Origin: a virus
Taxonomy: Duplodnaviria; Heunggongvirae; Uroviricota; Caudoviricetes
Virus record (IMG/VR): IMGVR_UViG_2778261676_000006
Location: 1 to 10,688 of that record
Reading direction: 5' to 3' (one strand)
Length of the DNA: 10,688 nt
Below the pieces are notes generated by a model that was not told where the DNA came from, did not search any database, and saw nothing but the letters and a program-made list of their open reading frames with translations. Shown here one piece after another: positions 1-10,688 of the stretch (its first letter is position 1; every line of letters begins with the position of its first letter). A program made the translations under genes and the position numbers.

Positions 1-996
1 TTATGGACGCATTATGGACATTCCTGACACCGGGTTAAGAGTCACAGCATCTTGTAAGAAATCCGGTGCAAAGTGTGCGTAGGTCATAGTTTGCTGAATG
101 TTAGAATGACCCAGGATGCGCTGCAATGTGATTATGTTACCTCCATTCATTATAAAATGTGTGGCAAATGTATGCCTCAAAACATGTACTGCTTGTCCGT
201 CAGGTAAATCGGGTTTTACTTCCCTGAGAGCGTTACGCACTTTGTAGTAACTGGCATTAAAAAGCCTGCCTGAATTTTTGGTCTTGATCCGTTTAATCAG
301 GTCCTGCGAAACGGGAATTGTCCTGCGTTTTCCGTTTTTAGTTTTCATAAACGTAACCATCTGGTTAATGATGTGTTCAGCTTTTAAATTAGCCACTTCA
401 CTCCAGCGTCCACCAGTAGAAAGGCAGACCAGAGTTGCATTTAATTCATCACCATCAAGCATGGATAACAGCCGCGTAATCTCTTCACTGGACAAAAAAG
501 CCATTTCCGTAACAGCTTCACGTAACCGTTTAATCTCACGGAACGGGTTGTGAGAGTGGTATTCACCGGCGTCAATTAACTTGGTGAACATCCCACTCAT
601 TATTGCCAGATGTCGATTTACGCTGGCTGGTTTTAGACCATCGTTCATCATTACAACGCGATAATCAGTTATCGTTTTCTTTGTTAGCTGGTCAGCTCTG
701 GACACTCCCATTTCTGCAAATTTGGCGATTATTGTCGTTAAACGCCCCCGTTCAATATCTCCACGCTCATGTGATTTTCCGTGATATATCCACCATCTGC
801 CTAACAACTCTGTAAGAGTTCGGCGGTCGGCTGGTTTCTCCAACCACTCTTTGTTGTGGTAGTTAACCAGTACATGACGTTCGAATGCTTGAGCTTCACC
901 TTTAGTTTTAAATTTCCGCCTGATACGTTTTCCATCTGCACCCTGCGGTCTGACGTCCACTTCATAACGACCATCATCGAGCTTTTTAATAGACAT
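1..996 (-). CDS. int: P2-type tyrosine integrase (site-specific recombinase, phage integrase family)
   Basis: 331-aa ORF. C-terminal catalytic box HVLRHTFATHF...LQRILGHSNIQQTMTYAHF (conserved R/H/R/Y pattern of tyrosine recombinases). N-terminus MSIKKLDDGRYEVDVRP matches P2 Int as I recall it. Lies directly downstream of the repressor on the same strand, as in P2. Confidence 0.9.
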   Translation of the reverse strand: MSIKKLDDGRYEVDVRPQGADGKRIRRKFKTKGEAQAFERHVLVNYHNKEWLEKPADRRTLTELLGRWWIYHGKSHERGDIERGRLTTIIAKFAEMGVSRADQLTKKTITDYRVVMMNDGLKPASVNRHLAIMSGMFTKLIDAGEYHSHNPFREIKRLREAVTEMAFLSSEEITRLLSMLDGDELNATLVCLSTGGRWSEVANLKAEHIINQMVTFMKTKNGKRRTIPVSQDLIKRIKTKNSGRLFNASYYKVRNALREVKPDLPDGQAVHVLRHTFATHFIMNGGNIITLQRILGHSNIQQTMTYAHFAPDFLQDAVTLNPVSGMSIMRP

Positions 997-1089
997 AAAG
1001 CCCTCCGATGACGCTGTTAACTTCTACTACTTGAAAATTAATGCAATTTTCTTTCGTACATTTACTACACACATATGCTGAATAAATCG

Positions 1090-1389
1090 TCAGCCAGTCT
1101 TCTGGTCTGAGTGGTGCAAGGTTGTTGAGTCTTGCCCAATGTGTGCGAGAGCCGGGGCTATTTGTCCAGCTGCTGGATCTGTTTCATCAAACATGAACCA
1201 GTCACGATACTTGCGAAAGCGTGGATGCTTAAACAGCTTCATACCTGCTTCCATAGGCATTTTTGATTTTCCTGATTCATATCCATGATATGTGTAGTAA
1301 TTAATTCCAATTAATTCAGCAAGTTCCTTAGTTTTAAGGCGTTCGGATTCACGGATGAGCTTTAGTTTCTCACTTTGTTCACTTGACAT
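1090..1389 (-). CDS. C: P2 C-type immunity repressor (small HTH repressor)
   Basis: The track ORF 1090..1407 uses a TTG start. The internal ATG at 1389 gives 99 aa (MSSEQSEKLKLIRESE...), the length of P2 C. The C-terminal half GQIAPALAHIGQDSTTLHHSDQKTG closely resembles the P2 C C-terminus as I recall it. HTH-like segment LKTKELAELIGINYYTYHGYESG. Sits between int and the divergent cox gene. Confidence 0.75.
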   Translation of the reverse strand: MSSEQSEKLKLIRESERLKTKELAELIGINYYTYHGYESGKSKMPMEAGMKLFKHPRFRKYRDWFMFDETDPAAGQIAPALAHIGQDSTTLHHSDQKTG

Positions 1390-1407
1390 AATTTTGCTAA
1401 TCTCCAA

Positions 1408-1482
1408 TTATATTGTTACTTGGCAATTTGTGATTCACTCAAAAAGGCTCTAGATGGCTCCAGTTGGTGAATCGCAAATCTT
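1408..1482. promoter_or_regulatory. Divergent early promoter/operator region (Pc/Pe-like) between C and cox
   Basis: 75-bp AT-rich spacer between divergent genes. A TATAAT hexamer reads on the minus strand at about 1407-1412 (plus strand attata). Direct repeat aGGCTC / tGGCTC at about 1445-1450 and 1455-1460 (10-bp periodicity) flanks a TAGAT -10-like element on the plus strand, reminiscent of the direct-repeat operators bound by P2-family C repressors. Confidence 0.4.
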
Positions 1483-1497
1483 ATGGAGGATAGCAAA

Positions 1498-1854
1498 GTG
1501 ACGACAAATGTAGAAATTTCTTGTCCAACTAGCGATGAGGCAAGTTTCGAAAATGAAGCCAAACGTAAAAGCATTCAGATTTCAGAGCGCCCATCTGATT
1601 TGCTGTCGAAAGAAGGTTTTGCTCTTTACATCGGTAAGACACCACGCGCGGTGGCTGAAATGGCTAAAGCAGGAAAGCTGCCAGCCTTCTACATGACAGA
1701 CCCATTAAAACCAAGAGGGAAAGCTGAATTATGGATTAATCGCCGTGAGTGGGACAAGTACGCAGCCCAACTGGTTGATGAAGCTCCGACAGAATGGCAT
1801 GACTGGAAAAATCGCATTAGTTACAGCAAATCAAGACATGGCCGTGCGGCTTAA
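1498..1854 (+). CDS. cox: Cox-like excisionase / early-promoter regulator
   Basis: Track ORF 1483..1854. GGAGGA at 1485-1490 followed 7 nt later by in-frame GTG 1498 suggests the real start. Segment GKTPRAVAEMAKAGKLPAFYMTDP resembles the winged-helix core of P2 Cox (GKLPVIDMTDP as recalled). First gene transcribed divergently from C. Confidence 0.6.
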   Translation: MTTNVEISCPTSDEASFENEAKRKSIQISERPSDLLSKEGFALYIGKTPRAVAEMAKAGKLPAFYMTDPLKPRGKAELWINRREWDKYAAQLVDEAPTEWHDWKNRISYSKSRHGRAA

Positions 1855-2035
1855 GGTGGAAAGGATGAACGAGCCTCGTTGTATTGCTCTGTTATTGCGT
1901 AACGAAAGCCCCAGGGCGATTGACTTCACCATCACCCACGGGAAGGGACGCAAGGGAATCATTATCCGTACCAAAAAACAGAGTCCGTTAAAAAAGGCTC
2001 TGACCTTTCTGAAAAGCCGGAGGGTCTGGAAATGA
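1799..2035 (+). CDS. Small early-region protein (P2 orf78-like position), start uncertain
   Basis: Open frame 1745..2035 ends with ATGA overlap into gene B. Candidate starts are ATG 1799 (78 aa), ATG 1838, or ATG 1865 (preceded by AAGGTGGA, the best SD). The stop is firm; the start is not resolvable from sequence alone. Confidence 0.35.
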   Translation: MTGKIALVTANQDMAVRLKVERMNEPRCIALLLRNESPRAIDFTITHGKGRKGIIIRTKKQSPLKKALTFLKSRRVWK

Positions 2036-2532
2036 CAGTGATGACGCTTAACCTCGTCGAAAAACAGCCAGCAGCCATGCGCCGGATAATTGGTAAGCAT
2101 CTGGCCGTCCCTCGCTGGCAGGAGACATGTGATTATTATAATCAGATGATGGAACGCGAACGGCTAACGGTTTGCTTTCATGCGCAGTTAAAACAGCGTC
2201 ACGCAACGATGCGTTTTGAAGAAATGAATGACGTCGAACGTGAACGGCTGGTTTGTGCAATTGATGAACTGCGTGGGGCATTCTCAAAACGCCGTCAGGT
2301 TGGCGCAAGTGAGTATGCATATATTAGTTTTTTAACAGTCAGTCAGCGTCGCACTTTATTTATGCACGCACGACTGACAGAAAAAGAATTTAACCAGCCA
2401 TACTGGCGAATTAATGAGGAATCATGTTACTGGCGTGATGCTTTATTCCGTGCATTACGTGAATTATTCAGCCTGTTTGAGTATGCACCGACAATTCTGA
2501 CGTCGGTAAAACCAGAGCAATATCTGCATTAA
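2032..2532 (+). CDS. B: Replication gene B protein (P2 gpB family, DnaB helicase loader)
   Basis: 166-aa ORF; the sequence MT.MTLNLVEKQPAAMRRIIGKHLAVPRWQ...FEYAPTILTSVKPEQYLH matches P2 B protein as I recall it, and the length is the same. SD GGAGGG lies upstream; the start overlaps the upstream stop (ATGA). Confidence 0.85.
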   Translation: MTVMTLNLVEKQPAAMRRIIGKHLAVPRWQETCDYYNQMMERERLTVCFHAQLKQRHATMRFEEMNDVERERLVCAIDELRGAFSKRRQVGASEYAYISFLTVSQRRTLFMHARLTEKEFNQPYWRINEESCYWRDALFRALRELFSLFEYAPTILTSVKPEQYLH

Positions 2533-2552
2533 ATAATTAACCAGAGTTTTTA

Positions 2553-2581
2553 ACGCACTTAATCGTGCGGGGCTTCTTTTT
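2553..2581 (+). terminator. Weak hairpin plus T-tract between B and the next ORF (possible attenuator)
   Basis: cgcac-ttaatc-gtgcg 5-bp stem followed by gggcttcttttt. Short stem and interrupted T-run, so weak at best. Confidence 0.2.
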
Positions 2582-2595
2582 GCCTGGAGAAAGTC

Positions 2596-2820
2596 ATGCA
2601 TACAGTTTCTGAAAATCAGTGCGGTAAATACGCATTACTGCTGCAACAGGCCAGAACCGAAGCACAGGCCGACGCTGCGACGCGCTTTTCTTCTCATCTT
2701 GACGCCATGATTCGCCATATCACAAAGGCGGAGTTATCCCGCGTGGAGATAGTCGAGCTGCTCAGTCAGGAGTCGGAAAAATTTCACAATATCGGATTGT
2801 CTCGCGGGGAGGTGCTTTGA
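2596..2820 (+). CDS. Hypothetical early-region protein (P2 orf80-like position)
   Basis: 74-aa ORF with SD GGAGA upstream of ATG 2596; same strand and spacing as the small ORFs between B and A in P2-like phages. Confidence 0.65.
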
Positions 2821-3119
2821 TGTCCTGTTCTCATTCAATTGTATTACTGAATAACGCCTTAAAAATCGCCGTTATGAAAAATGGCGATTTATCTCTTATT
2901 CAACTTTGTCTTGATAAAGAAAAACGCGACATAACTGAATCTGTTATCGCGATTTATCAGAATGAATTAAACCTCCTGTCTGATATGGTCAATTTACTTG
3001 TTAAACGCGCTGTGTTCCACAAGCAAATTTCCTCAGTGGATGAACTGACAAAATTAACGACAGAACTCGCCAGTTATTGCGCTGATGTATCCAGGAAACT
3101 TAACGATAAAAGGAGCTGA
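2820..3119 (+). CDS. Hypothetical early-region protein (P2 orf81-like position)
   Basis: Track ORF starts at TTG 2817; ATG 2820 overlaps the upstream stop (TGATG), with SD GGGAGG upstream. About 99 aa. Confidence 0.65.
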   Translation: MSCSHSIVLLNNALKIAVMKNGDLSLIQLCLDKEKRDITESVIAIYQNELNLLSDMVNLLVKRAVFHKQISSVDELTKLTTELASYCADVSRKLNDKRS

Positions 3120-3121
3120 TA

Positions 3122-3223
3122 ATGCCGGACAACGTAGATTTTATTCAGGAACAACAGGCTGAATTACTGGAGCGCCAGATTAACGCGGCAAGGGTAAAAC
3201 ATTGCGGTGTTTCTGCGCTGGTT
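3122..3223 (+). pseudogene. 5' fragment of orf82-like gene (probable TraR/DksA-type zinc-finger protein), truncated at a deletion junction
   Basis: Good SD (AAAGGAG) and ATG 3122. The N-terminus MPDNVDFIQEQQAELLERQINAARVKHCG looks like the start of a TraR/DksA-like small protein, but the C4 zinc-finger cysteines never appear. After about codon 34 the frame continues as an out-of-frame reading of gene A sequence up to 3538. Confidence 0.45.
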
Positions 3224-3993
3224 ACCGTGAACTACGCAAATTGCCTCGCGGCGTCAGCATTGCTGATGAGTTTGACGAGCGCGTCGAGGCTGCACGCGCC
3301 GCCGCAGACAGTGGTGATTTTGCGCTGTATATCAGCGCGCAGGGCGGGGCAAATGTCCCGCGCGATTGTCAGACTGTCAGGGTCGCCCGTAGTCCGTCGG
3401 ATGACGTTAACGAGTACGAGGAAGAAGTCGAGAGAGTGGTCGGCATTTACGCGCCGCATCTCGGCGCGCGTCATATTCATATCACCAGAACCACGGACTG
3501 GCGCATTGTGCCGAAAGTGCCGGTCATTGAGCCTTTGACTTTAAAAAGCGGCATCGCCGCGCCTCGGAGTCCTGTCAATAACTGTGGAAAGCTCACCGGT
3601 GGTGATACTTCGTCACCGGCTCCCACGCCTTCTGAACACGCCGCAGCAGTGCTTAATCTGGTTGATGATGGTGTTATCGAATGGAATGACCCGGAGGTCG
3701 TGAGGGCGCTCAGGGGTGCATTAAAACACGACCTGAGAACGCCAAACCGTCAGCAAAGAAACGGAAGCCCGTTAAAACCACATGAAATTGCACCATCGGC
3801 CAGACTGACCCGGTCGGAAAGAATGCAAATTACCCGTATCCGCGTTGACCTTACTCAGAACGGTATCAGGCCGCAGCGATGGGAGCTTGAGGCGCTGGCG
3901 CGTGGCGCGACCGTAAATTATGACGGGAAAAAATTCACGTATCCGGTCGCTGATGAGTGGCCGGGATTCTCAACAGTAATGGAGTGGAAATGA
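3221..3993 (+). pseudogene. A: 3' fragment (about 258 codons) of P2-type replication initiator gene A, lacking the N-terminal two-thirds
   Basis: The 263-aa open frame has no credible start (opens at TTG 3202 inside the orf82 frame; no SD or ATG near its 5' end). The sequence ...YRELRKLPRGVSIADEFDERVEAARAAADSGDFALYISAQGG...TVMEWK matches the C-terminal region of P2 gpA as I recall it. Full-length A is about 760 aa. Confidence 0.7.
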
Positions 3994-4445
3994 TGGCAAA
4001 AATTCACGAGGTAAAGCTGCACGCAAAATATTTTGACCTTGTGCTGGAAGGAAAGAAACGCGCAGAGTTTCGGAAAAATGACCGTAATTATGAGCGCGGG
4101 GACACGTTGATTTTGCATGAATGGGTGCAGGGTGTGTATACGGGGCGAAAGGTTGAAGCCCGGATAACAGATGTTACTGACTTGTCAGACTGGCTGGAAG
4201 ATTATGTCTTGCTAAGTATTGAGCTGCTTAATACAGGCGCATATGAGTTTGTGAACTGGAAAGAACTTAGTGAGCGTGGTCTGGTATTCAGAATTAATCA
4301 TGAAATTATGCATCAGCTCGGCCTTGCTGTTGTGTATGAACCAGAGACGGGGATGTCTGGCGGGGCAGTGGTTGGTGCGGATGGGATATGGAACTATTCA
4401 GATGAACAGGTGGAGCGTGCACAGCAAAACGGGTGGCTTGGATAA
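3990..4445 (+). CDS. ASCH/DUF3850-like (PUA-fold) protein
   Basis: Track ORF 3957..4445; ATG 3990 overlaps the stop of the A fragment (ATGA). N-terminal KIHEVKLHAKYFDLVLEGKKRAEFRKNDRNYERGDTLILHEW resembles ASCH/DUF3850 domains common in phage early regions. Confidence 0.65.
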   Translation: MMAKIHEVKLHAKYFDLVLEGKKRAEFRKNDRNYERGDTLILHEWVQGVYTGRKVEARITDVTDLSDWLEDYVLLSIELLNTGAYEFVNWKELSERGLVFRINHEIMHQLGLAVVYEPETGMSGGAVVGADGIWNYSDEQVERAQQNGWLG

Positions 4446-4651
4446 TGCACAGAATACCAGGCGAGATACCGCAGCATAAAACTAAAAATATCAAGCTGAT
4501 GGCCATTGTTCACCGTCTACAGCAGATTATGGTCAACGAAAATCTGACGCCCGATGAGCTAGTCGGGTGTGCCGAAATAGTCCGGGATAATTACGTATGG
4601 CTTAACTATATCGGTCAGCCCAGCGCTGCACCGCCACCACGCAGACGATAG
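4445..4651 (+). CDS. Hypothetical small protein (68 aa)
   Basis: ATG 4445 overlaps the upstream stop (TAATG); GC-rich like the phage backbone. No recognisable motifs. Confidence 0.4.
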   Translation: MHRIPGEIPQHKTKNIKLMAIVHRLQQIMVNENLTPDELVGCAEIVRDNYVWLNYIGQPSAAPPPRRR

Positions 4652-4840
4652 AGAACGCAGCCAGCTCAGGATTGGCGGGGGATAGAATAACGAGCATAGT
4701 GATGCGATTAGACAAACAGACTGACTGGTACACTTAGGATGGTTATAGTGGTTTCTAAGTGCTTTAGCGATACATCTGGTGGACTGTTTTACCAACCTCA
4801 GAGTTAGCTGAATTTTTAACAAAATACCATTTTGATAGAT

Positions 4841-4869
4841 TTGCCTAATTTATTAATTAAACTATACTG
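4841..4869 (+). promoter_or_regulatory. Candidate sigma70-like promoter for the + strand cargo operon
   Basis: TTGCCT (about 4841-4846), 16-nt spacer, TATACT (about 4863-4868), in an AT-rich stretch about 90 bp upstream of ATG 4960. Confidence 0.3.
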
Positions 4870-4959
4870 GACTTATACACAGTGTTCTGTTAATTGTTAG
4901 GTTGGTAAGATATTGTGAGGAGGTGATTACTATCTTGGCATCAATCAAGTGGAGGTTAA

Positions 4960-5196
4960 ATGATGAATATATTTGAACGTATTATAGGTAAAGCTGCTAT
5001 TGAAAAGGAAAGAGAACTGGCGAGGAGGCTTGAAGCATCTGGAACAAACACTGTTGAGGTGGTAGGTCGAGGCGCGATTATCACGTCTAAAGAAGACTTG
5101 GCAAGCTCAGATACAGTAAAATTGATGAAAATTAAAGCAAGAAAAATAGTTTCTGAGCAGGTAAAGCAAGAAGAAAAAATGGCTAAAGGGAATTAA
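4960..5196 (+). CDS. Small charged soluble protein (78 aa), first gene of a two-gene cargo operon
   Basis: GGAGG at 4951-4955 precedes ATG 4960/4963. Lysine/glutamate-rich, no TM segment. The stop is 2 nt before the start of the next gene. Low GC. Confidence 0.6.
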   Translation: MMNIFERIIGKAAIEKERELARRLEASGTNTVEVVGRGAIITSKEDLASSDTVKLMKIKARKIVSEQVKQEEKMAKGN

Positions 5197-5198
5197 TA

Positions 5199-5960
5199 AT
5201 GTTTGCTTTATTAATTATTCCATTACTTGTGAGTGGTTATATTGTATTAACCACTCATCCTTATCATTTCTATAGATTACACCGTTATGATGGGCAGTTG
5301 TTATATATGAAGTCAGCCGCCTTTGGTCTGTGGTGTTTTATATGGACATTGATTATAGCTTACTTAATAAAATGGATATGTCCGAGCTTCCATCCTGTCA
5401 CGATGGTTCGGGAACAATTAGATCTCAAACTTAGTGACAATGGTACTGAAAGAATCATAGGATGGATGATTTTACTTTCATGTGGAACGATATTTTTGGC
5501 TTGGATATGGAGTGTCGGTGCTAGATATTTGGTTATATATAGAGCTAAAATTATAAATTATATCCAAGGGGTAAAGGCTGCCAATATTGATTATGAGAAT
5601 CTTGTCATGCTAAGGATGAGGCAAGAGCTTATTAATGATAATCCAATGGATGAAATATTTTTTGATTCGTTAGTTGATAGACGTTCAATACTTATTACGT
5701 TGCAAAATAAAAAGACATATGTAGGAATTGTTAACGCATTAGGTGAGCCTAACGAGAAAGAAGGACCTAACCAGTATGTTTCAATCTATCCTATTATCTC
5801 TGGGTATAGAGATAAGGATTCATTGAAAGTAATCTTGGTGAATGAATATAGAGAGCTTGAGGATGCTGATACTAGTATCATCTTTCCACTAAAAGAAATT
5901 TCGCAAGTTTCTTGGTTTGATATGGATATTCATAAAATAGTTGAAAATAATAAGGTGTAG
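5199..5960 (+). CDS. Predicted integral membrane protein (3 N-terminal TM helices plus a soluble C-terminal domain of about 145 aa)
   Basis: 253-aa ORF. Hydrophobic segments FALLIIPLLVSGYIVL, AAFGLWCFIWTLIIAYLIKWI and IIGWMILLSCGTIFLAWIWSV. SD AAAGGGAA upstream; tightly coupled to the upstream gene. Low GC. Confidence 0.7.
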   Translation: MFALLIIPLLVSGYIVLTTHPYHFYRLHRYDGQLLYMKSAAFGLWCFIWTLIIAYLIKWICPSFHPVTMVREQLDLKLSDNGTERIIGWMILLSCGTIFLAWIWSVGARYLVIYRAKIINYIQGVKAANIDYENLVMLRMRQELINDNPMDEIFFDSLVDRRSILITLQNKKTYVGIVNALGEPNEKEGPNQYVSIYPIISGYRDKDSLKVILVNEYRELEDADTSIIFPLKEISQVSWFDMDIHKIVENNKV

Positions 5961-5963
5961 TAA

Positions 5964-5988
5964 ATGGTCACCTATAAAAGGTGACCAT
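5964..5988. terminator. Bidirectional intrinsic terminator between the convergent cargo operons
   Basis: Perfect 9-bp inverted repeat ATGGTCACC-tataaaa-GGTGACCAT, followed by a T-run on the + strand (ttattttt) and flanked by an A-rich stretch (T-rich on the - strand). Sits exactly between the stop at 5960 (+) and the stop at 5994 (-). Confidence 0.55.
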
Positions 5989-5993
5989 AATGC

Positions 5994-8258
5994 TTATTTT
6001 TGACGAATCCTGATTTTTGGTTGTTCACGAACAACAATATCAGTTTCTTTCCAACCAAGATTATTTATTTCAACCTCGGCTTCGTTGTAGACTGTAGTAG
6101 AATTGGCAAGAGATCTTAACGTAATAGCCAATACAGCACGTTGAGGTGAAGATAGAGGCTCTTGCTCTGCTCGTCTCTGAACATCAAGTTTAAGTCTCCA
6201 TTGCTCCCCATTTATACCTTGCGGAAATTGTTTTCTATAAACTTTGACTGGAGACCATTTGAAGCCATTTTCTATCAGTACCTTTTCAAATAATTCACTC
6301 TTTTCTTTTATTTGTGGAATTTTTCCGCTATGTATCCATTTAGCGTTAACTGGATCATAAGTGTAAGTCCCGAATGACACATCCACATTAGAACGGCAAT
6401 ATTCGGATGGGTAGTCATAATCAAGCGGTGGAGAATAAACGAGTGTCATAATAATTTCACCTGTGAATTTTCCATCCTCAGTACGTAATGACTGTGGTAT
6501 TACAAATGGCGTTCTACTGAATTCAATACCTTCTCGGGTATCTATTTCAAATAGAAATGTAATCTCATTTTTATTGCAACCAATAATATCATTTATATGA
6601 TCGCTTGGGCGTCCAAATCCTTGATAATTAAACGCATAATGCTCCGTTTTGGCTGGTGAGTTTTTTAACGCAGAATGAATTAATAGTGCCTTGATACGTT
6701 CAGGCGATGGTGAAATAGAACCATTAACATCTAGTTCATGCCACAGTGATGCCGCTAAACTTGAGATTAACGGTGCTGATAAACTTGTGCCAATACTTTC
6801 GCAAAGAGCATTGTCCTCGCCAATAGCTATGATTCCGGTATGTTCACAGTTTAATTTACTGTCACAATTACCTCCAAAGTGATTTATCTCTGGTTTGGGT
6901 ATAAAGGCTGGGCCGGGACCTCTTCTAGAAAAAGATGAAGGTTCAAATCTTTTGACCACAGAGTCAGACGATTCTAAATGGGCAACTGAGCCAACAGTTA
7001 ATGAACGAACAGAATCTGCGGGGGCTGATATTCTGTCATGCCCACCTAATTCTTGAGGAGGCCAGGTTCGTTGAGGATCATAAATGTAGTTGCCGGATGC
7101 TACGACGAAAAGACAATCATGCTCATCATGAAGTGCATTTAAAAAATGCCCCAATTCAGAGAAGCTGTCTTCAGAACATGGGGATTGACAACCTAATGAC
7201 AGATTCCATACACGTACTTCTGGATAGGTGGTCACAGCCTCTCGGATAGCTTTCATTAATTGTGGCAATTTGAGCGTACCATCTTTGGGAAAGGCTGCAA
7301 CATCAACAATTTCAGCTTGGCATTGAGGAAAACCAGCATAGTTATTCAACCATCTTCCATTAATTGCTAAACTTGCAACCATGTTCCCATGAGAATAGTC
7401 GTGTTCTCCTTTTACTAAATCTAAACTATCCCAAATCCATGGCCTAAGTATGTTGTTATTGGGATCGACTCCGCTATCTATAATTCCGAGTAGTGGATAA
7501 TGTTTATCCTCTTGAGGTAAGGGAAAATCATCTAGGTCTAGAGTTTCAGCAGGAATATATTGCGATACTGTATGAGTAAGACCAAATGTTGGCATAGGTT
7601 CTAATTTTCGTATGCCAATAAAACTTGCCAGTTGGGCGATGTTATCATTCCCTTTTACTTCATATATACTCAAATCTGAACTGATATCATACTTTTTGGG
7701 TTTTTGTATTCCTAGTTCATCTGCAAATTCCATTAATTCTTTGTCGATACTGCGGTTAGTTGTTCTATCTTTATGGTCAAAGAGTTTCAGAAGAAAACTA
7801 TCTGATTTATTTTTATCTATAACATCATGGTTAAGACTAAAAGGTTCGATCTTTTCAATTACAGCAATATGTACTGTCCCATTATGAGAATTAGTGCTAT
7901 TTTCAATTTTTTTGCGAAGTTGTGCTAACCCTTTTTCAGTAACACTTATAAGTAATTCTCCAAAATTATCACTGCCTATTACGGGACATGTATTATCACC
8001 TAATAGGCTTGATGGGCGATGTGACTTAGCAAGAGCTTTTTCATGAAGAGTAACTCTAGCCACCGCCGGTATATTGGGCCATTTTTTAAATGAGCTCTGG
8101 AAAAAATTTTTAACGTCATCGACTTCTTGTTTGAGTCTATTTTTTAGACTAGTTGTTACTGTTCGGATAGGTTGTTTCTTTCCGAAATTATATGTTTTTT
8201 CAGTAAAATCTTGAGGTGTCGCCTCAATTATTTTTATTGGTCTTTCTTTGTTACTCAT
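5994..8258 (-). CDS. ietS: S8 subtilisin-family serine peptidase, cytoplasmic, with extra N- and C-terminal domains (IetS-like)
   Basis: 754-aa ORF. S8 catalytic motifs in canonical order: Asp LLGIIDSGVD, His HGNMVASLA, oxyanion Asn VVASGNY, Ser GTSLSAPLISSLAA. No N-terminal signal peptide (MSNKERPIKIIEATPQDF). The start overlaps the stop of the upstream ATPase (ATGA at 8255-8258). Confidence 0.8.
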   Translation of the reverse strand: MSNKERPIKIIEATPQDFTEKTYNFGKKQPIRTVTTSLKNRLKQEVDDVKNFFQSSFKKWPNIPAVARVTLHEKALAKSHRPSSLLGDNTCPVIGSDNFGELLISVTEKGLAQLRKKIENSTNSHNGTVHIAVIEKIEPFSLNHDVIDKNKSDSFLLKLFDHKDRTTNRSIDKELMEFADELGIQKPKKYDISSDLSIYEVKGNDNIAQLASFIGIRKLEPMPTFGLTHTVSQYIPAETLDLDDFPLPQEDKHYPLLGIIDSGVDPNNNILRPWIWDSLDLVKGEHDYSHGNMVASLAINGRWLNNYAGFPQCQAEIVDVAAFPKDGTLKLPQLMKAIREAVTTYPEVRVWNLSLGCQSPCSEDSFSELGHFLNALHDEHDCLFVVASGNYIYDPQRTWPPQELGGHDRISAPADSVRSLTVGSVAHLESSDSVVKRFEPSSFSRRGPGPAFIPKPEINHFGGNCDSKLNCEHTGIIAIGEDNALCESIGTSLSAPLISSLAASLWHELDVNGSISPSPERIKALLIHSALKNSPAKTEHYAFNYQGFGRPSDHINDIIGCNKNEITFLFEIDTREGIEFSRTPFVIPQSLRTEDGKFTGEIIMTLVYSPPLDYDYPSEYCRSNVDVSFGTYTYDPVNAKWIHSGKIPQIKEKSELFEKVLIENGFKWSPVKVYRKQFPQGINGEQWRLKLDVQRRAEQEPLSSPQRAVLAITLRSLANSTTVYNEAEVEINNLGWKETDIVVREQPKIRIRQK

Positions 8259-9418
8259 AATATCTCTCTATAGTTCTTAGTTAGCCTTGACACTTTAGCA
8301 TTTGAAAGCCCTAGTATTTTTGCTATCTTTCGTATTGTAAATCTTTTGGGATTGTATTCTCTGAGAGTGGTCACAATCTTTATAAGTAAATTATCTTCTT
8401 CATCAAATGTAACTCCCTTCGCTTCTAAGATAGCCTCGACTAAAAATCGGGTATCGATTTGTTTATTATTGTAAACCAGAGCATGTCGCTCAGATCTTAA
8501 GCAGCATTGTTCTATAAATGAGCAGTTTAGCCCTGATGATATTTCCGCAAGGTCATCAACAAAATCGTCATATGTAGCTTTTATGTTTGAATATTGTTCA
8601 AATAGTTGTTTTCTGACTTCAAAATTAGGCAATCCAATAGATATTCTATACTCAAAGCGCCTCCAAACTGCGCTATCTAGAAGATTTTCATGATTACTTG
8701 CAGCAATCAATATTGTTTCTTCAGGTAGATTGTCAATATTTTGCAATAAAGAAACCACCACCCTCTTCAGTTCACCTAACTCATGCTGATCATCTCTAGC
8801 CTTTGCTAGAGAATCTAGTTCATCTAGAAATAAAACACATGGTGCTTTACTTGCATACTCAAATAGCTGCCTGATATTTTTAGAAGTAGACCCCAGATAT
8901 GATGAGACTAAGGAGTCACATCTTGCAGTAAGAAGCGGTAAATTTAGACAGGATGCAATATATTTTGATGTCAAGGTTTTACCACAACCTGGTGGCCCAT
9001 ATAAAATCATAGAGGATGTCACGCCAAGACCGGCATCCTTTAATTCTTTAGCTCGTTCAGTGAAAGTCAAAAATTCTTTAATTTTTTTCAGAGTGCTATC
9101 TTTCAACAATGGGAGTTGAATTTCAGAAGACGGTTGAGTTACGTCTGCTAAATCAAATTTAGTTTCTTTATCTACAGGTAATGTATCAAGACGTTCAAAA
9201 ATAGGTGATGTACTGCGTGATACTTTCTGCAAGTTAAACGTGTTTTTATCTTGAATACTACCTCTAATGGCTGAAGCAAGCTCAGGCAGCCCCATAGAAT
9301 CATAGGAACGCGCGAGTTTCGAAGCCTGCCGAACAAAAGCAACTTTATCCCCTTTGAGTCCAAGACTGATAAGCTGCGAAAGTATCTCGTTTGTGGTCAT
9401 TTGTGATACAAACCTCAT
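8255..9418 (-). CDS. ietA: AAA+ ATPase with C-terminal HTH-like tail (IetA-like)
   Basis: 387-aa ORF. Walker A GPPGCGKT (about 8975-8998), Walker B CVLFLDELD, sensor-1 LIAASNHEN, probable Arg finger in VWRRFEY. C-terminal IRKIAKILGLSNAKVSRLTKNY resembles a helix-turn-helix. Translationally coupled to the downstream S8 peptidase. Confidence 0.8.
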   Translation of the reverse strand: MRFVSQMTTNEILSQLISLGLKGDKVAFVRQASKLARSYDSMGLPELASAIRGSIQDKNTFNLQKVSRSTSPIFERLDTLPVDKETKFDLADVTQPSSEIQLPLLKDSTLKKIKEFLTFTERAKELKDAGLGVTSSMILYGPPGCGKTLTSKYIASCLNLPLLTARCDSLVSSYLGSTSKNIRQLFEYASKAPCVLFLDELDSLAKARDDQHELGELKRVVVSLLQNIDNLPEETILIAASNHENLLDSAVWRRFEYRISIGLPNFEVRKQLFEQYSNIKATYDDFVDDLAEISSGLNCSFIEQCCLRSERHALVYNNKQIDTRFLVEAILEAKGVTFDEEDNLLIKIVTTLREYNPKRFTIRKIAKILGLSNAKVSRLTKNYREIL

Positions 9419-9600
9419 TAATCTGTTGTCTAAATGGCTTATAGGTGAGACAAATTTCTATTTTAATGTAGTTTATATGTATTTTGGTGAAACGAACACT
9501 ATGTTTTACATAAATCTTTCAGGTTTGGAGTTCTTGGAGGGCATAGAGTTGCATCAATTTGCATTCTAATTAGACTTTTTTATTGCTATCGTATTCTACA
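9419..9600 (-). promoter_or_regulatory. AT-rich upstream region, presumed promoter of the ATPase-peptidase operon
   Basis: About 180 bp of AT-rich non-coding sequence upstream of the ATPase start on the minus strand, with several -10/-35-like hexamers; no single promoter can be assigned by eye. Confidence 0.3.
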
Positions 9601-9659
9601 TGTGACTAGGTCTGCCCTTCCTGATGCGTTTGCATTAAAACCTCCCCATGAAGCGGGCG

Positions 9660-9678
9660 GGCGAGGCGGGGAAAGCAC
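9660..9678. other. cos site (19-nt cohesive-end sequence of P2/P4 type)
   Basis: GGCGAGGCGGGGAAAGCAC matches the P2/P4 cohesive-end sequence as I recall it. It lies where cos is expected, between the cargo and the portal-side end of the genome. Confidence 0.6.
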
Positions 9679-9810
9679 TGCGCGCTGGCGGTGGTGCTGA
9701 TTTTATTTTTTCAGCGTCTGAGCGCGTCGTGATGGCGTTTAGATTGTGTTCCGGGGCCTGCGGGATGTTTTGCGCGGAGGTGAGCGTGTGAGGGCGTGAT
9801 GACGGGGTGT

Positions 9811-9832
9811 AAAAAAGCCGCCCGCAGGCGGC
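9811..9832 (-). terminator. Minus-strand intrinsic terminator (in P2 would end the leftward portal/terminase operon)
   Basis: On the minus strand: GCCGCC-tgcg-GGCGGC hairpin followed by TTTTTT (plus strand reads aaaaaa gccgcccgcaggcggc). Confidence 0.45.
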
Positions 9833-9938
9833 GATGTTCAGCCGTTGTCAGTGTCCAGTGAGTAGTTTTTAAAGCGGATGACCTCCTGACCGAGCCAGCC
9901 GTTTATTTCCCGAATCCTGTCCTGTAGCCTCCCGTAAC

Positions 9939-10688
9939 AGGCTGGAAGCCAGTGTCGCTCCGTCACTGGCCGGAATTAAAATCCCGCACATCGACCAGTC
10001 GCAGGAGTCTGATGCAAAATTCCTGACCCGCCTTGCTGAACGCAACGGCGGTGAGGTGTCGGTAAAAATGGGAAAATTGTTGTTTCTCAAAGCGGGGCAG
10101 GGGGTGACGGCCAGCGGTAAAAAAATCCCGCAGATTACCATCGCCCGCAGCGACGGCGACCGTCATCATTTTGCGATTGCTGACCGTGGAGCCTACACCG
10201 GCGTAACGGCAAAGTGGTTACACACCAAAGACCCGAAGCCACAAAAGCAGAAGGTAAAACTGAAACGCAAAAAGAAAGAGAAACACCTGCGCGCACTGGA
10301 GCACCCGAAAGCGAAACCGGTCACGCAGAAGAAAGCGCCAAAAGTACCGGAAGCGCGCGAAGGTGAATACATGGCCGGTGAGGATGACAATGTTTTTGCC
10401 CTGACCACGGTATATGCCACGAAAGCGCAGGCCATGCGCGCCGCTCAGGCGAAGTGGGATAAACTGCAACGGGGCGTTGCGGAGTTCTCCATCAGCCTGG
10501 CTACCGGTCGGGCAGATATTTACACGGAAACACCGGTTAAGGTGTCAGGCTTTAAGCGTGTCATAGACGAGCAGGACTGGACCATCACTAAGGTGACACA
10601 TTTTCTGAATAATAGCGGCTTCACGACGTCCTTAGAGCTTGAGGTCAGGCTTTCTGATGTGGAGTACGAAACAGAAGATGATGAGTGA
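9939..10688 (+). pseudogene. D: 5'-truncated tail gene D (P2 gpD / phage late control D family), C-terminal part only
   Basis: The frame opens right after a stop at 9936-9938. The sequence IKIPHIDQSQESDAKFLTRLAERNGGEVSVKMGKLLFLKAGQG...SLELEVRLSDVEYETEDDE matches the C-terminal region of P2 gpD as I recall it (full length about 387 aa). The first standard start is GTG 10056 (track ORF 10056..10688). Only about 260 bp separate it from cos, with no N-terminal coding sequence. Confidence 0.75.

Follow-up and report, generated by a model that had tools for sequence, protein, structure and literature searches.

The gpA-gpQ locus beside the cohesive-end site (cos) has been defined as a defence hotspot of P2-like phages, with 1,650 arrangements recorded in 18,150 Escherichia coli loci (Rousset 2022, PMC9122126). 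Among the systems catalogued there, ietAS is system #7, with 400 occurrences (Table S5B, PMC9122126), and it is frequently prophage-borne in E. coli (Wu et al.). IetAS homologues are described as toxin-antitoxin-like systems in which a protease is the toxin and an ATPase the antitoxin; a phage protein acts as the trigger, the outcome is abortive infection, and two genes suffice (sources including PMC13069673), the molecular mechanism being still open (PMC13069673). In the variant known as ietHAS, IetAS is joined by a co-oriented SNF2 helicase, which was found by mutation to be required (PMC13069673). The subject of the present analysis is an AT-rich block at positions 4665-9630 of a 10,688-nucleotide (nt) window, this being the whole stretch of DNA analysed (IMG/VR virus record IMGVR_UViG_2778261676_000006, Caudoviricetes). 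The block holds an ietA-ietS operon and, convergent to it, a pair of genes for proteins of 78 and 253 amino acids (aa).

Very probably, this block represents exchangeable anti-phage accessory cargo of the P2-family hotspot between A/DUF3850 and cos/Q. As a feature it is ordinary and largely already known, the hotspot having been described and the arrangement catalogued. The exact arrangement is found in Table S5A of the same survey (WP_000210436, WP_032144906, WP_000554775, WP_021570510, WP_000457800, WP_000066157; PMC9122126), and the 253-aa and 78-aa proteins, with identical sequences, are listed in its Table S5B as the uncharacterised system #57, which occurs 75 times and carries neither domains nor a note (PMC9122126).

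The backbone around the block is P2-like and comprises int, C, cox, B, orf80-82, the 3' part of the replication gene A, a DUF3850 gene and a 68-aa open reading frame (ORF), with 94-99% identity to Peduovirus genomes and to P2-like E. coli prophages. In blastn comparisons against P24A7b, homology stops at 4664 and restarts at 9631. Against P2 it restarts at the same position and stops already at 4213, inside the DUF3850 gene, so that the variable region has a ragged left edge, about 450 nt to the left of the compositional one. On the right, the 19-nt cohesive-end sequence of P2, GGCGAGGCGGGGAAAGCAC, is found at 9660-9678, and position 9631 lies 29 nt before this cos 19-mer. These alignments to P2 and its relatives, which the initial annotation had called for, fix the edges of the cargo at 4664/4665 and 9630/9631; the limits given there, 4700 and 9640, are off by no more than about 35 nt on the left and 10 nt on the right.

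Synteny and blastn comparison with P2, P24A7b and intact E. coli prophages place the block between A (with orf91/DUF3850) and cos with the portal gene Q, and the intact E. coli prophages hold the identical cargo between A/DUF3850 and the portal gene. The same site is occupied by tin-old in P2, by hypothetical genes in P24A7b and, apparently, by a DUF4238 gene in pro483 and a reverse transcriptase in pro147, the last two read only from the feature names under megablast matches. The flanks are constant, the content differs between related phages, and anti-phage genes are predicted to be encoded, as judged from the PADLOC assignments of IetA and IetS. In its position, its conserved flanks and its AT-rich defence cargo the locus resembles the described gpA-cos-gpQ hotspot and shows no difference in kind. 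What sets it apart is the surrounding prophage, which is here degraded, most of A and the region from Q to D having been deleted.

The G+C content (GC) is 36.5% over 4665-9630 (4,966 base pairs (bp); 36.4% over 4700-9640), compared with 46.4% in the left flank (1-4664) and 54.9% in the right flank (9631-10688). Along a 400-nt sliding average it stays at 0.32-0.43 across approximately 4600-9600, with values of 0.46-0.58 at 3000-4600 and 0.54-0.58 at 9600-10688, and a maximum-likelihood fit of two change points sets the breaks at 4810 and 9605 (log-likelihood gain 87.8, chi-square p ~7e-37). The initial annotation had described an AT-rich island of about 5 kb at 4700-9640, with four cargo genes, located between the replication gene and cos; the island is borne out by the sliding, segment and change-point analyses, its location by the homology edges and the cos 19-mer, and the gene count is correct. 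Low GC is shared by other cargo of such sites, being 34% in P2 tin-old and 37.5% in P24A7b, and the cargo of a Klebsiella P2-like phage and of SEN5 is also GC-poorer than the backbone. The block and its edges contain the following features:

3993-4445, plus strand: DUF3850/ASCH/DUF7415 gene (orf91-like), identified by Pfam (7.8e-18) and the annotation of the relative L002; GC 0.47; backbone gene at the left edge of the hotspot.
4445-4651, plus strand: 68-aa ORF of unassigned function (phrog_11386); GC 0.49; last gene with backbone composition.
4665-9630, no strand: compositional island formed by the hotspot's variable cargo, delimited by GC, change points and loss of homology to P24A7b and P2.
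4665-4959, plus strand: non-coding leader of 295 nt 5' of the 78-aa gene, with promoter-like sites (the scan scored no better than shuffles) and an imperfect inverted repeat.
4960-5196, plus strand: 78-aa small protein, first gene of the pair (phrog_37504; WP_021570510), with no Pfam, PADLOC or NCBIfam match.
5199-5960, plus strand: 253-aa membrane protein (phrog_3630; WP_000457800), starting 2 nt after the 78-aa gene.
5964-5988, no strand: perfect hairpin with a 10-bp stem between the convergent operons, likely a bidirectional terminator.
5994-8258, minus strand: ietS, S8 subtilisin-like protease of 754 aa (PADLOC IetS PDLC02197, Pfam Peptidase_S8).
8255-9418, minus strand: ietA, AAA+ ATPase with a C-terminal helix-turn-helix-like tail (PADLOC IetA PDLC02196, Pfam AAA).
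9419-9630, minus strand: non-coding stretch 5' of ietA with 33.5% GC, presumed promoter region of ietAS, equivalent in position to the starts of the P2 old-tin transcripts beside cos.
9631-9678, plus strand: conserved sequence next to cos, from which all P2-like relatives are homologous again.

The DUF3850/ASCH gene encodes 150 aa, with an extra C-terminal DUF7415 segment, compared with 109 aa for P2 orf91.

The cargo is organised as two convergent operons, with the 78-aa/253-aa pair on the plus strand and ietA-ietS on the minus strand. In the latter, ietA lies upstream of ietS and the two genes overlap in an ATGA stop/start at 8255-8258 on the minus strand. IetS matches the PADLOC model PDLC02197 over its full length (1.1e-273, positions 1-747), and its catalytic residues Asp261, His290, Asn352 and Ser492 are all present, including an intact Asp/His/Ser triad. 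IetA matches PDLC02196 over its full length (1.4e-131) and Pfam AAA (1.1e-31), with both Walker A (GPPGCGKT, 141-148) and Walker B (FLDELD, 197-202) intact; its longest ORF has 387 aa, and the annotated start at 9400 yields 381 aa. As in known IetAS (Gao_Iet), the system is a prophage-borne two-gene operon with ietA first and intact motifs; the clade differs in being divergent and in always being found, at IetS identities of at least about 60% in the sample described below, with the convergent 78-aa and 253-aa pair. By analogy with its homologues, this clade would have anti-phage activity: IetA would hold the S8 protease IetS in check, and a phage protein would set off the toxicity. The lysogen would express both operons, which would shield the host, and hence the prophage, from other phages.

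The convergent pair is probably translationally coupled and would produce the 78-aa protein together with an inner-membrane protein bearing a cytoplasmic Sm-like barrel. For the 253-aa protein, three transmembrane (TM) helices are predicted (approximately 1-19, 39-60 and 85-108), followed by a helical linker and a C-terminal Sm/Hfq-like beta-barrel (approximately 149-240). Its AlphaFold model, built on an alignment of 41 sequences, has a mean predicted local distance difference test (pLDDT) score of 79.5, and the modelled C-terminal part, an N-terminal helix and then a strongly bent five-stranded barrel, superposes on Sm/Hfq structures. Going by the distribution of charges, the conserved RLHRYDGQLLYMK loop and the barrel would lie in the cytoplasm. 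The fold is modelled as alike to the small beta-barrels of Sm, Hfq, LSm and WYL proteins: no Pfam or NCBIfam match of the barrel domain to the LSM, Hfq or WYL sequence families was found, and the barrel is here fused to three TM helices. An MscS-like channel, which also combines three TM helices with an Sm-like beta domain, was considered and is not supported, as the fold matches lack the MscS unit of TM3 and beta domain. The model of the 78-aa protein is of low confidence (pLDDT 57). Neither protein has a meaningful match in Pfam, PADLOC or NCBIfam, and PHROGs assigns both to families of unknown function only. In the leader, the inverted repeat pairs 4789-4812 with 4885-4908 (imperfect, 24 nt, 79% complementary, 72-nt spacer) and may be regulatory; Rfam gave no match in the window.

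Several observations weigh against the defensive reading of the block. The assignment of the protease and the ATPase does not reach the NCBIfam equivalog cut-offs (IteS 782 vs 900 bits, IteA 385 vs 510 bits), IetA is only 34% identical to the ietAS common in P2 hotspots, and the matches of IetS fall into a group at 51-100% identity and then a group at 46% or less, which includes the proteins named IteS by NCBI. No experiment on this clade was found in the IetAS literature, and a promoter scan showed no enrichment over shuffled sequence, expression being inferred. The pair matches nothing in the PADLOC defence library, and among ten of its distant homologues, each with one downstream ORF inspected, the neighbour is a housekeeping gene (major facilitator superfamily, TonB receptor, FliF, DnaE-like) and no defence-island signal is seen. 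By these comparisons, this IetAS is a distinct and divergent Enterobacterales clade, a family member according to the PADLOC subtype models and not according to the NCBI equivalog. Beyond generic subtilases, no solved structure of IetS was found.

Within the reading of the block as hotspot cargo, the relation of the pair to IetAS can be explained in two ways. In the first, the pair forms a two-gene module of its own that merely co-travels with IetAS; it would act at the membrane, by abortive infection or superinfection exclusion, or else be a small toxin-antitoxin-like addiction system. A survey of 60 species-representative genomes of Gamma-, Beta- and Alphaproteobacteria found the operon in about 55 of 58 full-length loci, with a co-directional ORF of 59-94 aa separated by -4 to +24 nt from the larger gene. 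The pair also sits at other sites typical of morons in unrelated temperate phages, namely the junction of int and the attachment site (int-att) in lambdoid E. coli prophages and phiES15, and the P2 hotspot in SEN5 and a Klebsiella phage. It is itself AT-rich, and the modelled combination of a membrane anchor with an oligomerising, ligand-binding type of fold would suit such a role, Sm/WYL-like barrels being found in defence regulators such as BrxR, CapW and DriD. On the other side stand the lack of homology to validated defence or toxin-antitoxin proteins, the housekeeping genes downstream in Pseudomonas and other distant taxa, and a literature in which no experimental test was found; nor was any description of the pair found there by protein accession or by topic. 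On balance, the evidence leaves this explanation about evenly poised. As the survey indicates, the pair is an old, self-standing and widely conserved two-gene operon, which is new, and its most plausible role would be that of a second, membrane-acting exclusion or abortive-infection module.

In the Klebsiella phage ST15-OXA48phi14.1 (L005, 3283-5992), whose hotspot is of the P2 type, the genes of a distant homologue of the pair (72 aa and 280 aa, 21% identity) share their strand with a 69-aa ORF and the gene of a 477-aa TIR-domain protein, which come next in this order.

In the second explanation, which is rather doubtful on present evidence, the four genes form one system and the pair is an obligate accessory of this IetAS clade, for example as a membrane effector or sensor under the control of the protease/ATPase pair or cleaved by it, or as a substrate of the IetS protease. 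It draws on a linkage seen in a small sample, consisting of seven look-ups of pair or IetS homologues and about 100 loci in all. Every examined homologue of the 253-aa protein with at least 55% identity has IetS/IetA convergent to it across a spacer of 26-40 bp, except for two loci of Arsenophonus endosymbionts, and these linked loci span E. coli, Enterobacter, Citrobacter, Pectobacterium, Providencia, Salmonella/Citrobacter and Scandinavium; among the homologues examined at 48% identity or less, none is accompanied by IetAS. In the reverse direction, sampled IetS homologues at 72% and 61% identity have the pair and those at 44% and 42% have none, so that within the sample the linkage is reciprocal and extends to every sampled IetS homologue of at least about 60% identity. 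It includes loci that lack P2 backbone homology, since in Pectobacterium and Providencia the flanks of the block show none, except for a short integrase fragment in Pectobacterium. The four proteins also diverge in parallel (88/90/84/89%, then 76/78/65/72%, then 55/60/55/54%), the block is never partial in the 12 of 12 complete E. coli genomes that carry it, and ietHAS offers a published precedent of three genes with an essential extra one (PMC13069673). Against a single system, the pair stands alone without IetAS in many more lineages (lambdoid int-att sites, phiES15, SEN5, the Klebsiella P2-like phage, Pseudomonas, Alpha- and Betaproteobacteria) as well as in the two Arsenophonus loci, IetAS functions as two genes in other clades, and the convergent operons are not co-transcribed. 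Several of the loci from other genera are P2-like, so the linkage may partly reflect shared descent of a phage lineage, and the sample is small. With ietHAS the locus shares the principle that IetAS clades recruit extra genes; the difference is that the extra gene there is a required helicase, whereas here it is a convergent membrane/Sm-like pair whose dependence is only conjectured. Within the loci compared, one clade of the pair and this IetAS clade are linked in both directions and in several genera, an association that is new here.

An IetS homologue at 51% identity, the most divergent of the clade (metagenomic loci L095-L097), has a non-homologous pair of 57 aa and 216 aa convergent to ietS. 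This pair occupies the position of the 78-aa and 253-aa genes, the layout being analogous and the proteins different.

The distribution of the block as hotspot cargo also informs on how it moves. Of 5,426 complete E. coli genomes, 12 contain it, always in full and with 99.7-99.9% identity, and across the eleven carrier loci compared it is 99.8-99.9% identical. The identity of the flanks in these carriers is 95-97% from cox-B to orf82, 98-99% from the 3' part of A to the 68-aa ORF, and 91-94% from cos to the 3' end of Q. The carriers have two different integrases and attachment sites, beside pflA or beside yegR. That the island is near-identical amid diverged flanks, without repeats or a recombinase, indicates a recently spreading cassette that is exchanged by recombination in the flanks, and not by insertion. 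Such a cassette would move between diverged P2-like backbones by homologous recombination in their conserved flanks. A search of plasmids with the island gave only weak AAA matches in Enterococcus.

The identity pattern bears directly on the proposal that the island is a discrete mobile element that transposed, or integrated site-specifically, into a previously empty site. The sharp compositional edges would suit such an event. However, no direct or inverted terminal repeats were found at 4665/9630 and no transposase or integrase gene within the island, the site holds alternative cargo in relatives instead of being empty, and the identities fit flank recombination, which makes this proposal very improbable; a transposon or integrative island, which would show terminal repeats or a target duplication and its own recombinase, was rejected as a class. 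The initial annotation had spoken of horizontally acquired cargo inserted at the hotspot. Its placing of cargo at the hotspot holds, whereas the word "inserted" is misleading, given the lack of flanking repeats and of a recombinase and an identity pattern that fits flank recombination.

Two observations concern the backbone of the carriers. The int/repressor/cox region of the window (1-1864) has no megablast match to P2 and is 99% identical to P24A7b and to the E. coli prophages adjacent to pflA. The carriers adjacent to yegR differ in their integrase (337 aa) and in their repressor and hold the same cargo. From these alignments, the backbone is a mosaic around a constant cargo.

The AT-richness is not a pointer to a specific low-GC donor, as across all hosts examined, namely Pectobacterium, Providencia, Salmonella/Citrobacter, Enterobacter, Citrobacter and Scandinavium, the homologous block has 34-38% GC between flanks of 41-52%. 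Low GC is instead a property of the cassette itself and not the imprint of an identifiable donor. The contrast between cargo and backbone is largest at synonymous third codon positions, where pooled GC (GC3) is 0.268 in the four cargo genes (0.25-0.30) and 0.471 in the ten backbone genes (0.37-0.61; Fisher p = 1e-31). The AT-biased codons reported in the initial annotation are thereby confirmed, and the GC and codon-usage checks proposed there, now run, both give a significant difference from the flanks (p ~7e-37 and 1e-31). Its picture of GC-balanced to GC-rich flanks suits the right side and the A-gene region better than the far left, since in region 1-3222 the GC is only 43.8% and drops locally to 0.37-0.40, in orf81 and in the intergenic region of C and cox. 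With the left early backbone itself lowish in GC, the cargo stands out more sharply from its right flank than from its left one. The idea that the dip is an ordinary fluctuation within the phage, or an effect of amino-acid composition, with no foreign cargo involved, could appeal to those local backbone dips, but it is refuted by a shift sustained over 5 kb (p ~1e-33 to 1e-37), greatest at synonymous third positions and coinciding exactly with the end of homology to relatives.

Compared with every intact relative, the prophage around the cargo is a doubly deleted P2 remnant, in which three truncated backbone genes remain:

3223-3993, plus strand: 3' third of the replication gene A, delimited by blastn breakpoints against the relatives L001, L002 and L007, and abutting the 5' part of orf82 at 3222/3223.
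9849-9925, minus strand: remnant of Q, the last 77 nt of the portal gene, mapped to the portal coding sequence of L002 (17748-18782).
9926-10688, plus strand: 3' 763 nt of the tail gene D (Pfam Phage_GPD, profile positions 152-304 of 305; blastn to the D gene of L001, 2501-3262, and to L015).

At junction 3222/3223, a 1,899-bp deletion runs from orf82 into A and has removed orf83 and about two thirds of A, with the context of the P2 ori nick site kept at 3553-3578. At junction 9925/9926, the missing stretch begins 77 nt before the end of Q and reaches to codon 134 of D, and the last 254 codons of D remain, with the Q terminator hairpin at 9817-9832. To the right of cos there is no intact late region: essentially all structural genes are absent and cos is kept. 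Both junctions show only 2 nt of microhomology. The Q/D junction has no exact match in the genome, viral or metagenome contig collections, and a megablast search with 9600-10400 found no record spanning it among complete E. coli genomes; the A-deletion junction has no exact match in the viral contig collection, and the fusion ORF at 3122-3538 is found on no record. The two deletion junctions may be natural or assembly artefacts.

At the 3222/3223 junction, the 5' part of the DksA-like orf82 runs out of frame into what is left of A, its last third. The window begins exactly at the stop codon of int and ends exactly at that of D.

Two further loci, from E. coli or metagenomes, are also degraded. 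In L011, a P2 prophage lacks the region from cox to DUF3850 and part of the terminase, and the four-gene cargo is intact. In L015, the portal gene leads directly into U-D-ogr, again with the four-gene cargo intact. Independent degradation of these loci around an intact cargo suggests that defence cargo recurrently outlives its phage. Degraded prophages that keep their defence cargo were raised as an open question in a 2026 survey of P2/P4 defences, and the window is such a case, with replication and structural genes lost and the defence cargo intact.

For annotation, the lesson is routine: in P2-like prophages, the defence hotspot is recognisable by a sustained drop in GC beside cos. What goes beyond routine is the pair, which sits at moron sites of unrelated temperate phages without an assigned function. 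If the four genes do form one system, it would link protease/ATPase abortive infection to a membrane component. The steady association of this IetAS clade with a membrane/Sm-like pair is in itself a handle on the mechanism of IetAS, offering a candidate partner or substrate.

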